Shown here in pieces: positions 19,900-40,323 of a stretch of DNA of 64,000 nucleotides. Where the stretch lies: assembly GCA_965198235.1 (NCBI GenBank), contig OZ240248.1, positions 576,001 through 640,000 on the forward strand, given 5' to 3'. A model generated the notes under the pieces. It saw nothing but the letters and a program-made list of their open reading frames with translations, was not told the origin of the DNA and ran no database searches. The stretch comes from Candidatus Poribacteria bacterium (GTDB lineage: Bacteria > Poribacteria > WGA-4E > WGA-3G). Numbering within the stretch: position 1 is the stretch's first letter; every line of letters begins with the position of its first letter. Made by a program: the position numbers and the translations under genes.

Positions 19900-20089
19900 G
19901 ATTCGGTGAAAATTCGCTGGCTTTGACGTAATACAAAAATCCGATGCACATCTCATCTGTCGTTTTTTCGCCCCACCCGACAGGGATCGGTGGACTGTGC
20001 GGGTTCGCCGGGTTCTCTGAGGAATTATCGAAATGCGCGACGAGATCGACACGGGTGCCAGTGGGTAAGAAGAGCGGCTCGCGATAATG
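19877..20089 (-). pseudogene. Orphan C-terminal 70 codons of a copper type II monooxygenase-like (redoxin-associated) protein, abutting the IS right end
   Basis: Manual translation HYREPLFLPTGTRVDLVAHFDNSSENPANPHSPPIPVGWGEKTTDEMCIGFLYY...; no N-terminal part on the other side of the IS. Confidence 0.75.
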
Positions 20090-20129
20090 GTGATAGACCC
20101 AAGCCTAAAGACTTGGGCTTCTGCAATCA

Positions 20130-21341
20130 TTAAGCAGAAGCATTTGTGGAATTGAGAAGCGGACTACACGCTTCAACGGAGGTGCCGACAATCCTGTTGA
20201 ACAAAACAATCGGTCTTACGACTCCTAACCCAAAGGAAGCTACCCCTTCCTTAAGAATGTTCATAGCAGCGTTCTGGTCGCGGTCAAGGTGTGTTCCACA
20301 ACTTGGACACGTCCAGTGACGATCTGATAGCGTTAAGTCTTTATTATGATAGTTACAAACAGAACACGCTTTTGTAGTGGGCGACCACCGATTGATTTTC
20401 AGCACAGAACGGATACGCTTTTTGCTCTGGTGTTTGAGTTTCTGATAGAACTCACCAAAAGCAAGGTCAGATACCTGTTTGCCAAAGAGTGCTTTCATGC
20501 CTCGAAGGTTCAGGTCTTCAAAGAACAGGATGTCAAACTGACGACAAAGTTTTATCGCAAGTTTCCAGTGGTGGTCTATCCTTTGATTCGCCGTTTTCTT
20601 ATGGATACGGGCAACGTTCTTACGTTCTCGTTCCTGATTCTGAGAACCTTTGACTTTACGGGAATATACCTTTTGTGCAGTTGCCAACTTTTCAGCGTTG
20701 AGTTTGTAGAACATTGGCGATATTTCTCGGTGTCCGCTACTGGTAGTCAGGAAGTCTTTGATTCCAAAGTCGAACCCTTCAGCTTGACCCGTCTTGGGTT
20801 CATATCTGACTTCACTATAATCTTCAGTGAGCGTGATATACATATCTCCAAGTGCGTCTCTTGTAACCTGAACGCGTTTGATTTTTCCCTGTATCGGGCG
20901 GTGCAGCGCGAACCGATACCAACGTCCGTTGAGTCGGATTTTATACGTCGGGTGATTTCGCTTATGTTTGTGTTTATCGGAAACTTTTTCTATCGCAATC
21001 TGTTCGCCAGAGAACGTCATGCCTCTATGTTTCTTACACTTCTTGAACTTCGGGTGACCTTTGCCAAGGGTTTTCATTTCTTTGAAACTTTGTGCCAAAC
21101 GCTTTAGGACATTCTGCAACGCCCACGAGTAAGGGATATTCCAATGCCGATACTTCTCAAGACGCTTGAGTTTCGTCAAATGCTTCGACATTTTCGCATA
21201 CGAAAGTCCTTTACCATAGCGGCGGTAATATCGCATGCAGAGGGCGAGAAAGTGATTTTTGACAACGCCACAGATATTGCACTCGTCATGCAAGTGACGC
21301 AACGTCTTATCCTTGAATAGTTTGTGTTTTGTATTTCGCAT
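20130..21341 (-). CDS. tnpB: RNA-guided endonuclease TnpB
   Basis: RuvC motifs GFDFGI, FEDLNL, DRDQNAAMNI intact; Zn finger CSVC/CPSC. Confidence 0.96.
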   Translation of the reverse strand: MRNTKHKLFKDKTLRHLHDECNICGVVKNHFLALCMRYYRRYGKGLSYAKMSKHLTKLKRLEKYRHWNIPYSWALQNVLKRLAQSFKEMKTLGKGHPKFKKCKKHRGMTFSGEQIAIEKVSDKHKHKRNHPTYKIRLNGRWYRFALHRPIQGKIKRVQVTRDALGDMYITLTEDYSEVRYEPKTGQAEGFDFGIKDFLTTSSGHREISPMFYKLNAEKLATAQKVYSRKVKGSQNQERERKNVARIHKKTANQRIDHHWKLAIKLCRQFDILFFEDLNLRGMKALFGKQVSDLAFGEFYQKLKHQSKKRIRSVLKINRWSPTTKACSVCNYHNKDLTLSDRHWTCPSCGTHLDRDQNAAMNILKEGVASFGLGVVRPIVLFNRIVGTSVEACSPLLNSTNASA

Positions 21342-21345
21342 GGTC

Positions 21346-21434
21346 TATCAAGTCTCAAGTCTTTAACCCCGTTCAAGTGGGTAGGCAGACACGTAGCCTT
21401 GCGACTACGCTTGAACTGTCTGCCAACTTGATAC
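21346..21434 (-). ncRNA. Pseudoknotted structured RNA forming the tnpB 5' leader (copy 1)
   Basis: Five helices, four with compensatory changes versus copy at 39640-39727; begins ~6 nt after a TTGACG-N18-TATAAT promoter. Confidence 0.75.
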
Positions 21435-21743
21435 TACTAATTATACCACAATTTCGGACGAAACGTCAAGAAAAAAATGAACGTTTTGGTCCTTTCCAAG
21501 AAGGCGAGACTGTATCCCCGACCTAAAGGAACGGGGTTTTAGTCTCGGAGGTTTTGATAATAGGACTTACGCATGCTGCTCTTTTGTAGCACAAAATGTA
21601 TGAAGTTTCAGAAAATATTTCGCTAATACTATAAGGAACAATTTCCAATCAAAAACGGTTTCTCATCCTGGAAATCCTATAAAGATCGAAGAAGCCTGCT
21701 TCAGACAACTGATCGCCGACGGCTGACTGCTGACCACTGATGG

Positions 21744-30794: not shown

Positions 30795-31274
30795 TTATTC
30801 TTCAGACGGAAAACCCTCAACCGGATCAAAAACGTATCTTATATCATACGCAACGCCAAAACGCTCCAAGAACGCAAGATATTCATCACGGAACGTTCGC
30901 CGTGAATGATGAGTCTCCTGATTTTCAATGTATGCTGCTACCTCGGGTATCTGAGAATGTGAATAACTGAACGCGCCGAACCCCTCCTGCCATCCAAATT
31001 GGCCCACAGTCCAATGTTTCTGATTAATAAAGCGTGTCGAATTTACCTTGATGTCTTTTACTAAACCAGACAATGCAGCATCCGGGGTCATACCAATCAG
31101 AATGTGGATATGATCTGGCATTGAGTTGATTTGAATCAATTTCTGTTTTTTATTTCTGATAATACCGGTGATGTATTTGTGAAGTTCAGCCTTGTGGCAT
31201 TCGGGAATGAGGGCTTGTCTACCTTTAACGGAAAACACGATATGTACATAGAGTTGTGTATAGGTATTTGCCAT
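30795..31274 (-). CDS. tnpA: IS200-like / REP-associated tyrosine (Y1, HUH) transposase
   Basis: YVHIVFSVKGR, MPDHIHIL (HUH), FGWQEGFGAFSYS, YIENQETHH. Confidence 0.92.
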   Translation of the reverse strand: MANTYTQLYVHIVFSVKGRQALIPECHKAELHKYITGIIRNKKQKLIQINSMPDHIHILIGMTPDAALSGLVKDIKVNSTRFINQKHWTVGQFGWQEGFGAFSYSHSQIPEVAAYIENQETHHSRRTFRDEYLAFLERFGVAYDIRYVFDPVEGFPSEE

Positions 31275-31359
31275 AGGCTCTTGCATTCCTCCAGAATTTG
31301 CTGTATTTATCTATAGCATCCATATTATATATCCATTCCCATTTATATGTCAACACCAA

Positions 31360-31841
31360 AAGGATTAGGGACATAGCACTCCGCTGGAGTGCCCTTCTGC
31401 CTATATCTCATTTTCTATAGACATATCACGCCTACAGCGTGAGGAACGCTTTTCAATCACGTAGCCTTCATAACCCTGATAAGGATTAGGGACATAGCAC
31501 TCCGCTGGAGTGCCCTTCTGCCTATATCTCATTTTCTATAGACATATCACGCCTACAGCGTGAGGAACGCTTTTCAATCACGTAGCCTTCATAGCCCTGA
31601 TAAGGATTAGGGACATAGCACTCCGCTGGAGTGCCCTTCTGCCTATATCTCATTTTCTATAGACATATCACGTCTACAGCGTGAGGAACGCTTTTCAATC
31701 ACGTAGCCTTCATAATCCTGATAAGGATTAGGGACATAGCACTCCGCTGGAGTGCCCTTCTGCCTATATCTCATTTTCTATAGACATATCACGCCTACAG
31801 CGTGAGGAACGCTTTTCAATCACGTAGCCTCCATAATCCTG
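31360..31841. repeat. Four tandem 121-bp REP/BIME-like units
   Basis: Units start 31360, 31481, 31602 and 31723; palindromes GCACTCCGCTGGAGTGC and TCACGCCTACAGCGTGA. Confidence 0.93.
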
Positions 31842-31933
31842 ATTCTGGCGGACCGCTGACCCCTGACAGCCGATAGCTAAATTTGCGAAACCGCCGCAAC
31901 TATGCTATAATGTTTCATAGGAGGCACTTCATC

Positions 31934-38214: not shown

Positions 38215-38423
38215 ACGTATTAGGATTTGTGGGTTGATCTGCGCTCGCGATTTACTCCATCTCAAATTTACATCGCCAATACGGATAATCCTTGGCGGCC
38301 TTTGCCAATCCCCGTCTCACAGGATTTTCATAGCAGTAGCGGATAATTGCTTTCAATGATTCATCCTGCCGAATACCGTGTTCGTGATAGACCCAAGTCT
38401 AAAGACTTGGGCTTCTGCAAATG

Positions 38424-39635: not shown

Positions 39636-39639
39636 GGTA

Positions 39640-39727
39640 TATCAAGTCTCAAGTCTTTATCCCCTATTCAGTGGGAGGCAAGCACGTCACCAAGCGGTAA
39701 CGCTGAATATGCTTGCCAACTTGATAC
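39640..39727 (-). ncRNA. Pseudoknotted structured RNA forming the tnpB 5' leader (copy 2)
   Basis: Same fold as 21346-21434 with compensatory substitutions; follows TTGACT-N17-TATAAT (39732-39760). Confidence 0.75.
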
Positions 39728-40323
39728 TCTAATTATACCACATTTTTAGGTAAAAGTCAAGTCTTTTTTCAACAGAGACCCACGGTCTAATTCACAACGG
39801 CGAGACTGTATCCCAAACCTAAAAGGATTGGGTTTTAGTCCTCGGAAGGTTAGATAAGCCTCGGCAAAGTTTGCTCGCTCCCAAGTTGAATGACCGCGTG
39901 AATATGATCTGGCATCACGACAACACAAAACCATTCGAGTCGCTCGTTGGCTTCTAGCCAATCAAAAGATTTAAAAATGATGTTTGCGGCTTCGGGATTT
40001 GCGAGAAGTGGTCTTTTGTCGAGGGTGCAAACTGTGAGGGAATAGTAGAAACCGGGTATTGAATGTCTGCCTTTCCGTAGTTGACGGTATCCTCGGGGTG
40101 GTGTTTGCGGCATGTTTTTTGTTTAATCGGTTATTAACGTGAAGGATCGCGAGCACAACTCGCTCCTACAGAAGAAATCGCAAGCGAGACACAGGGAATC
40201 GCGAGCACAACTCGCCCCTATAGCAGAAACGCAACACAGATTTGACATCTGTTTGGATATTATGCTATACTTCACTTATATATTAAGGTACAAAAGAAAT
40301 ACTCTCTGGAAATGTAAATAGAT

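Follow-up and report, generated by a model that had tools for sequence, protein, structure and literature searches.

The window analyzed here is a 64,000-nt stretch of a Candidatus Poribacteria genome (GenBank assembly GCA_965198235.1, contig OZ240248.1, positions 576,001 to 640,000) that carries two insertion sequence (IS) elements of the IS200/IS605 family, each with a tnpB gene whose 5' leader is predicted to fold into a pseudoknotted RNA. Both TnpB proteins match PF01385 (E = 2e-15 and 4e-16) and PF07282 (E = 1e-18 and 4e-19). The two copies align from just within a common flanking TTATC through ...GGGTCTATCAC, with left ends starting at ~21555 (copy 1) and ~39852 (copy 2) and an element size of ~1.47 kb; the left boundary of copy 1 is placed at the point where the alignment of both copies ends. 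The subterminal hairpins are related at both ends (left CCCCG..UUUAGG..CGGGG or CCCAA..UUUAGG..UUGGG; right CCCAAG..UUUAGG..CUUGGG). No tnpA lies between the ends of either element, and both represent the tnpB-only form of IS200/IS605.

The leader RNA is ~90 nt long and fills the interval between promoter and start codon (Table 1). It consists of helices P1, P2, P3, and P4, together with a 7-bp pseudoknot that joins the bulge between P2 and P3 to the P4 loop, and its P1 3' strand is present as two tandem copies (repeats 1 and 2), the second of which stops 4 nt short of the AUG in copy 1. P1 begins about 6 nt past the -10 box in both window copies. According to a promoter scan of these copies, each 401-nt region holds a single sigma-70-like site, and no terminator-like site lies 3' of either promoter in the same regions. 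The promoter-leader layout is kept in 25 of 25 copies of this leader type (type A) in the genome. Most of this architecture had been anticipated by an original prediction made from the sequence alone. The helices, their places and the copy 2 substitutions that it described are all present on the minus strand of both copies, as are the predicted RNA start ~5-6 nt after a sigma-70 -10 box (6 nt, behind a near-consensus promoter), the pseudoknot, and a P1 that ends 4 nt before a start codon lacking a Shine-Dalgarno (SD) sequence.

Table 1. Positions of the two tnpB elements and their leaders in the window, with related leader types (C1, genome coordinates)
Feature	Position	Strand	Comment
Copy 1 tnpB, 403 aa	20130..21341	-	OrfB_IS605 and Cas12f1-like TNB domains
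Copy 1 tnpB 3' end and right end	20090..20270	-	Closes ...GGGUCUAUCAC at 20090; presumed omegaRNA scaffold, by analogy with published TnpB biology
Copy 1 leader RNA, type A	21342..21434	-	Entire 5' untranslated region, ~+1 to the base before AUG
Copy 1 repeat 2	21346..21353	-	ACUUGAUA; proximal partner, register B; then GACC, AUG at 21341-21339
Copy 1 repeat 1	21354..21360	-	ACUUGAG; distal partner of P1 5' strand, register A
Copy 1 P4 hairpin	21366..21382	-	ACCC 21382-21379 with GGGU 21369-21366; loop carries CUUGAAC
Copy 1 P2	21384..21424	-	GGCAGACA 21424-21417 with UGUCUGCC 21391-21384; encloses bulge and P3
Copy 1 P3 hairpin	21409-21392	-	CGUAGUC-GCAA-GGCUACG
Copy 1 bulge	21416-21410	-	GUUCAAG; pairs with CUUGAAC 21377-21371 (7-bp pseudoknot)
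Copy 1 P1 5' strand	21426..21433	-	UAUCAAGU; at or adjoining predicted transcript start
Copy 1 promoter	21440..21469	-	TTGACG (21469-21464), 18-nt spacer, TATAAT (21445-21440), TG-extended; 11/12 matches
Copy 1 left end	21512..21560	-	Flanking TTATC 21556-21560 and subterminal hairpin CCCCG...CGGGG
Copy 2 right end	38384..38423	-	Closes ...GGGUCUAUCAC at 38384
Copy 2 tnpB, 403 aa	38424..39635	-	OrfB_IS605 and Cas12f1-like TNB domains
Copy 2 leader RNA, type A	39636..39727	-	Layout as copy 1 (fold 39726-39640)
Copy 2 repeat 2	39640-39647	-	
Copy 2 repeat 1	39648-39654	-	
Copy 2 P4 hairpin	39660-39676	-	Loop strand CUGAAUA 39665-39671
Copy 2 P2	39710-39717 with 39677-39684	-	
Copy 2 P3	39685-39702	-	
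Copy 2 bulge	39703-39709	-	UAUUCAG
Copy 2 P1 5' strand	39719-39726	-	
Copy 2 promoter	39732..39760	-	TTGACT, 17-nt spacer, TATAAT, TG-extended; 11/12 matches
Type B (family f3)			P2 GUGGGAGA/UCUCCCAC; pseudoknot GUGUCAG/CUGAUAC; P4 UCC/GGA; tandem AAGCCAGA-AAGCCA, then AUG
Type C			P2 GGUAGAGA/UCUCUACC; P4 CCG/CGG, CCA/UGG and others
Type C copy in this genome	C1:241001-241088	-	5' of tnpB 90% identical to copy 1
Type D, three copies in this genome	C1 ~3783677, 858423, 537403	+, -, -	Promoter kind as type A; no tnpB
Type E			P2 GGGUGGCA/UGCCACCC; tandem AACUGG-AACUGG; no SD; AUG 7-8 nt later
Type E copy in this genome	C1:3481722-3481818	+	119-aa open reading frame
Type E copy in this genome	C1:4454155-4454254	-	86-aa open reading frame

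Single-sequence folds of the sense strand give z-scores of -3.56 (copy 1) and -5.78 (copy 2), with 0 of 200 shuffles as good, and the sense strand of both leaders folds better than the antisense. A core-motif search of the genome (5.17 Mb) yields 25 type A leaders, the same 25 as covariance model R1, all directly 5' of tnpB frames or fragments from several subfamilies (30-100% protein identity). The 22 distinct, referenceable copies were aligned with MAFFT, not fitted to structure (alignment A2), and 96.1% of 743 cells are paired, versus 83.3% on average in shuffles and 29-42% after the partners were slid. Both sides change in 16 of 34 pairs, and the observed covariation score is reached by 0 of 500 shuffles. 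The pseudoknot helix contributes strongly to this signal, with both-side changes in 6/7 pairs and 98.7% of cells paired; P2 is 100% paired, and P3 is 99.4% paired with both-side changes in 4/7 pairs. RNAalifold, which was not fitted to the proposed structure, recovers P1, P2, P3, and P4. Furthermore, G-U pairs are common on the sense strand, one P3 pair being U-G in 10 of the 22 copies. Among 143 distinct type A leaders (all fetched loci plus this genome), the pseudoknot retains 7/7 bp in 136, 6/7 in five, and fewer in two, using 42 different bulge 7-mers. The covariation proposed for the two window copies thus extends to larger alignments (22, 143, and 70 leaders, the last described below), and the sequences indicate that the leaders are covarying, pseudoknotted sense-strand RNAs, far beyond chance; the energy models leave out the pseudoknot, model E-values are rough, and kin among the counted leaders are not independent.

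The pseudoknot changes quickly. Comparison of ten complete type A elements from this genome in 45 pairs gives 0.63 differences per site at the five variable positions of the bulge, versus 0.33 at third codon positions, 0.20 in P3, and 0.05 in P2. The closest non-identical pairs (87-89% coding sequence identity) already differ at 4/5 bulge positions, some pairs at 84% identity have identical bulges, and the pseudoknot sequence is a mosaic between copies. The pattern suggests either diversifying selection or a reshuffling of leader segments among the copies.

Metatranscriptome contigs from one study cover the leader bins in 4/4 runs, though such contigs show no ends, strand, or level. The bin just 5' of the -10 box (21450-21511) has contig depths of 9.2, 0, 0, and 0.55, and one contig (21366-21532) crosses the promoter. 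DNA is possible in the libraries and the element is multi-copy, and the contigs prove neither a transcript start nor a discrete RNA. Within the element, these contigs are deepest over the 3' end of tnpB plus the right end (20090-20270), with a summed depth of 312-718 in the four runs for the bin at 20086-20147; an abundant omegaRNA would account for this, but contig depth sums paralogues and cannot rank parts of the gene.

The tandem 3' strand permits two P1 registers, as the original prediction had noted, and both covary with the 5' strand. Among the 22 copies, 96.4% of cells are paired in register A (repeat 1) and 96.1% in register B (repeat 2). In 127 of the 143 type A leaders, the 5' strand has two or more complementary sites downstream in the same leader, each of 5 contiguous bp or more; the rule holds in 16 of 18 5'-strand sequence classes, and tails borrowed from other classes satisfy it in 130 of 2160 cases. 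Of the 129 leaders with at least two sites of at least 4 bp, 121 space them 7 nt apart. Types B, C, and E likewise carry tandem sites, of unrelated sequence, as do two of three type D copies. Changes in the 5' strand that are mirrored twice downstream are hard to explain unless both pairings matter, and we take the sequences to mean that both P1 registers are under selection.

These registers lie at the start codon. Between the end of the repeat 2 helix and the start codon lie 3-6 nt in 108 of 113 type A leaders; in type E the gap is 7-8 nt. Where a type C leader adjoins an open reading frame (ORF), the AUG falls within a repeat in 7/7 scored cases, both repeats carry an in-frame AUG in four, and a purine-rich AAGGA/GAGGA-like spacer separates the repeats. 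Types A, B, and E retain a CC directly 5' of the AUG. The 16S rRNA of this genome ends with a CCUCC anti-SD, and an SD-like 4-mer is found at -16 to -5 in 46% of 3258 long ORFs versus 10% in a control window. The type A leaders of the window contain no SD sequence, and host genes farther downstream of leaders carry ordinary ones.

The window fold is type A of a wider family, and its original description as a module specific to tnpB leaders was too narrow. Types A-E have a common architecture with different sequences. Their 70 distinct leaders were aligned to a second covariance model, R2, and the alignment leans towards the R2 structure; 93.2% of 1739 cells pair, versus 35-51% with slid partners, both sides change in 23 of 26 pairs, and the covariation score is 0.705 versus 0.200 for shuffles. 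Across types, P2 changes on both sides in 6/8 pairs. At least 7 contiguous complementary bp connect the bulge to the P4 region in 56/70 leaders of the five types, compared with 2.4% in a control that matched each bulge with the loops of other RNAs. The pseudoknot of type E is 8 bp long and also covaries (CUGCAAAG/CUUUGCAG, CUACGAAG/CUUCGUAG, CUGCUACG/CGUAGCAG and others). The type C copy of this genome has the type A architecture built from different helices, with an SD-like AAGGA between the repeats and the AUG inside repeat 2.

All genome counts are samples of the phylum. R1 matches 24/24 other genomes of the genus with 2-40 copies each, and 0/16 genomes from three other families in a first sample with default filters; because R1 misses types C-E with these filters, its counts understate the family. 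A DNA search detected type C, which R1 sees only with unfiltered scoring, in 36 of 61 genomes of the genus, and type E has DNA matches in 83 of 176 genomes of the phylum. R2 matches 112 of 151 sampled Poribacteria genomes at E<=1e-4, with at least ~1450 matches (up to 27 scored per genome); by family, R2 matches 91/100 genomes of f1, 20/26 of f3, and 0/24 of seven others. The exact type A pattern occurs in at least 110 stretches of species-representative genomes, and among the matches listed 108 are Poribacteria-titled and two are titled 'uncultured bacterium'. No match was obtained by blastn in a plasmid collection, and the exact type A pattern has 0 matches in viral contigs.

The genes behind these leaders are diverse. 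From 30 type C loci, 12 ORFs were picked for Pfam as a survey, not a census; they comprise three TnpB, one AbiJ_NTD4 protein with a CAP12/Pycsar TIR domain, one MvaI/BcnI restriction endonuclease, one DUF4268 protein, one trypsin-like peptidase with CARDB, one sub-threshold GIY-YIG, and four with no family. Type E leaders stand before a family of proteins of 113-131 aa whose N-terminus resembles a signal peptide and whose sole Pfam match is a sub-threshold DUF4315; in this genome both type E copies are immediately 5' of small non-transposon ORFs, and the 119-aa family behind one of them has the same kind of start and is multi-copy across the genus. Non-tnpB copies have their own promoters. Two of the type D copies sit in tnpB-less mini-elements of ~0.5 kb, in the order left end, promoter, leader, spacer, omegaRNA-like scaffold, right end, which may be guide-only derivatives; the third copy stands alone. 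Type D leaders are followed by a hairpin and a U-tract.

No catalogued RNA accounts for the fold. At gathering scores, Rfam 15 has 0 matches in the whole window. For 19900-21700 at E<=10 it returns only a chance snoRNA match (16.9 bits vs a cut-off of 45), and for ten loci with types B-E at E<=1 only two tRNAs and one weak sRNA match elsewhere in the loci. The models without a match include IS605-orfB-I (RF03065), all riboswitches, the small ribozymes, and the group I introns. The possibility, raised at the outset, of a catalogued IS605-orfB motif, ribozyme, or riboswitch is therefore not borne out for any type, and the proposal of a second RNA module apart from the omegaRNA stands: the copy 1 fold (21346-21433) lies between promoter and AUG, and the right end is at 20090. 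An IStron does not fit either, the leader measuring ~90 nt against an intron core of several hundred nucleotides, with no Intron_gpI match. A published supplement reportedly lists a 'Poribacteria-1' motif that may be this RNA, which is the main risk to novelty; any Rfam entry for it gave no match. Full-text literature searches returned no paper on Poribacteria with TnpB or on a Poribacteria RNA motif, and no tnpB leader is described in the titles and abstracts searched. Neither Poribacteria nor IS605 appears in the main text of PMC5737381.

The original prediction had also called the element TnpA-less. This is correct for both window elements but not for the genome, which has six matches to the Y1-transposase family PF01797 outside them, three in tnpA-tnpB elements, so that TnpA is available in trans. 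The full tnpA-tnpB elements are located at C1 ~119838, 4381488, and 4792784. Two of them have a tnpA start only ~8 nt past a TG-extended TATAAT, and this tnpA would be nearly leaderless; in the 119838 element, the one examined for this feature, the tnpB frame overlaps the tnpA stop codon and no structured leader separates the two genes. The type A leader begins at the position where the tnpA start would be. Another tnpB (C1:4993640-4994845, minus strand, 77% identical) keeps the left-end hairpin and is without promoter-like site or leader. The window itself contains a Y1-transposase gene (PF01797) at 30918-31262 on the minus strand, with no adjoining tnpB and with two similar loci elsewhere in the genome. 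Upstream of it, at 31360-31843, a 121-bp unit is repeated 4.0 times (98% matches), each unit with the hairpin GCACUCC-AGC-GGAGUGC; the locus (30918-31843) looks like a repetitive extragenic palindrome-associated (RAYT-like) transposase with its repeat array.

We propose that the leader acts in cis as a gate on translation initiation, set by two mutually exclusive P1 registers, an interpretation to which we give about an even chance. The P1, P2-P3, and P4 elements would form a three-way junction locked by the 7-bp pseudoknot from the P2/P3 bulge to the P4 loop, with the P1 5' strand, at or next to the first transcribed nucleotide, free to pair with either copy of its tandem complement. In register A, pairing with the distal copy would close the junction and leave the proximal copy and start region single-stranded, making translation possible. 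In register B, pairing with the proximal copy would create an 8-9-bp helix 3-6 nt from the AUG, at the usual SD site, and block initiation; in type C relatives this helix would cover the AUG itself. Since repeat 1 is transcribed first, the nascent RNA could be translated for a short interval before relaxing to equilibrium. In a nested thermodynamic model, which leaves out the pseudoknot, this equilibrium would favor the closed register in both window copies (register B 70% in copy 1 and 92.5% in copy 2; register A 13% and 2.4%). The outcome would be a low, self-limited output of a potentially harmful nuclease, and the genes served do include nucleases and defense genes, for which tight expression makes sense. 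A protective role at the 5' end may exist alongside the gate. Of the possibilities first suggested (a cis-regulatory switch, a ribozyme, or protein-binding control of tnpB), a switch on translation is the one that two selected registers at a start codon fit; nothing points to a ribozyme, and the specificity for TnpB is lost.

Several known systems resemble such a gate. The stem-loop of the IS200 tnpA 5' untranslated region (UTR) hides the ribosome-binding site. Like our leader, it is the structured leader of an IS200/IS605-family gene and limits translation of a transposon protein; it differs in serving tnpA, in being a simple hairpin with no duplicated 3' strand, in having no sequence relation, and in not being found at host genes. 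In the phage MS2 maturation gene, hok mRNA, and the rpsO/S15 pseudoknot operator, output of a sparingly made protein is also limited by which of two folds forms. The leader shares no homology with these, both of its folds use one 5' strand and two identical partners, and its kinetics are our proposal. The omegaRNA, with its IS605-orfB-I model (RF03065), is likewise a structured, pseudoknotted RNA of the same transposon and primary transcript, but it sits at the 3' end and right end and carries a guide, whereas the leader sits at the 5' end, has no guide and no model match, and also precedes non-transposon genes.

Some observations weigh against the gate. Type D copies lie in tnpB-less mini-elements without an adjoining ORF, and many type C copies are 30-250 nt from the first long ORF; by eye, short upstream ORFs start in repeat 2 in some of these distant copies but not all. 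Translation of the adjacent gene consequently cannot be the only function. The nested model, moreover, favors register A on average over 113 type A leaders (mean difference in folding free energy, ddG, -1.9 kcal/mol, standard deviation 3.0), so closure at equilibrium is not general. E(A)-E(B) ranges from -7.7 to +4.8 kcal/mol and is within 2 kcal/mol of zero in 45 of the 113. It also counts against the gate that this energy model leaves out the pseudoknot and that the RNA data are contigs from one study.

An alternative is that binding of a ligand or host protein, to the folded junction or to the P2/P4 face, would shift the RNA into register A and make the leader a riboswitch-like ON switch common to tnpB, defense nucleases, and small secreted proteins. 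The layout resembles that of translational riboswitches with three-way junctions, such as those for purines and tetrahydrofolate: a junction closed by P1, a long-range tie between arms, and an alternative pairing that frees or hides the start. In the leader, the mutually exclusive P1 pairings covary and the proximal one abuts or covers the start codon. The constancy of P2 within a type (0.05 differences per site vs 0.33 at third codon positions) and the use of one fold at unrelated genes would also suit a sensor. The junctions, however, differ between types: J1/2, J2/4, and J4/1 all vary in sequence and length, J4/1 reading UAAAG, CAUGAAA, or GA and J2/4 spanning 1-5 nt. There are few unpaired positions to form a pocket, the gene set suggests no metabolite or other ligand candidate, no Rfam riboswitch model matches, and the competing pairing partner literally duplicates the P1 3' strand in tandem. 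With no unpaired nucleotide conserved from type to type, a small-molecule riboswitch is unlikely, and so is a ribozyme; a sensor of any kind we consider improbable, if worth weighing.

We attach a similarly low probability to protection of the 5' end as the sole function, whereby the fold would keep the first nucleotides paired and shield the transcript from 5'-end-dependent decay. The tnpB transcript is also the omegaRNA precursor, and the spare repeat would keep P1 closed while a ribosome occupies the start. P1 begins ~6 nt past the -10 box in both copies, and the fold persists in mini-elements that lack an ORF and, in some cases, at a long distance upstream of one, all of which is consistent with such a role. 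Protection leaves unexplained the 3-6-nt spacing to the AUG, the AUG within repeat 2 of type C, and the missing SD, and it is compatible with the gate rather than exclusive of it.

There is little chance that the ~90-nt fold, alone or with the downstream hairpin, is released as a small RNA acting on other RNAs in trans. The hairpin and U-tract after type D, the type C and D copies that stand alone behind their own promoters, and the regulatory RNAs processed from the IS200 tnpA 5' UTR (PMC5435999) would be in keeping with this. The window copies, on the other hand, are followed by no terminator-like site, and the fold offers no conserved single-stranded seed, its variable parts all being paired.

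A marginally smaller probability goes to autoregulation, with TnpB or the TnpB-omegaRNA complex binding the leader as an operator. The position at the tnpB start and the fact that TnpB is an RNA-binding protein speak for it, but the fold also lies 5' of a restriction endonuclease, an AbiJ/TIR gene, a peptidase, and small secreted proteins, and one leader type serves TnpB subfamilies that are only ~40% identical and have different right ends. Since unrelated genes and ORF-less mini-elements use the fold, TnpB autoregulation is unlikely. Nor does the complementarity between leader and right end in copy 1 covary. This candidate pairing with the right end or omegaRNA (UAAAGACUUG with CAAGUCUUUA of the right-end hairpin) was discarded as a chance match, since copies with other P1 sequences keep the same right-end hairpin.

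A self-cleaving ribozyme is very improbable. Small ribozymes are common in mobile elements, and a compact, pseudoknotted junction could be one, but no hammerhead, twister, twister-sister, pistol, hatchet, or hepatitis delta virus (HDV)-like model matches at E<=10, junction and loop nucleotides differ across types A-E, and the sole unpaired position seen to be kept in types A-D is an A 5' of the pseudoknot strand, where type E has AC. With the promoter directly upstream, no 5' processing is needed. Least probable of all is a single-stranded DNA structure for transposition: IS200/IS605 elements transpose as single strands whose ends fold, mini-elements retain the leader fold, and DNA and RNA structures are hard to distinguish from sequence alone (PMC5737381), yet the fold lies ~80 nt inside the left-end hairpin, exactly between conserved promoter and AUG, G-U pairs are frequent (10/22 copies at one P3 pair), an IS-end hairpin is upstream of 0/17 type E copies (weak support, from a crude scan of low sensitivity in which 4/23 type A copies reach threshold), and type E and most type C copies stand at ordinary genes behind different promoters, which makes such a role unlikely.

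In our literature search, we found no earlier report of a structured 5' leader of tnpB, and to our knowledge a literal tandem copy of the P1 3' strand is not known from catalogued leaders. The covariation support is unusually clean. TnpB proteins are RNA-guided nucleases ancestral to Cas12 and are now genome-editing tools; if the gate interpretation is right, a natural, compact, and portable element that throttles their translation would be of practical interest. It is also conceivable, though doubtful, that the fold senses a cellular signal (a small molecule, an alarmone, or a host protein) that stabilizes the knotted junction and thereby governs a phylum-specific regulon. TnpB nucleases, restriction and abortive-infection effectors, and small secreted proteins would then be switched on together, and the fast-changing pseudoknots would keep dozens of co-expressed leaders from pairing in trans. 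The fold is among the most abundant structured RNAs of this uncultivated phylum of sponge symbionts, and it links mobile-element nucleases, defense genes, and host genes under one leader type.

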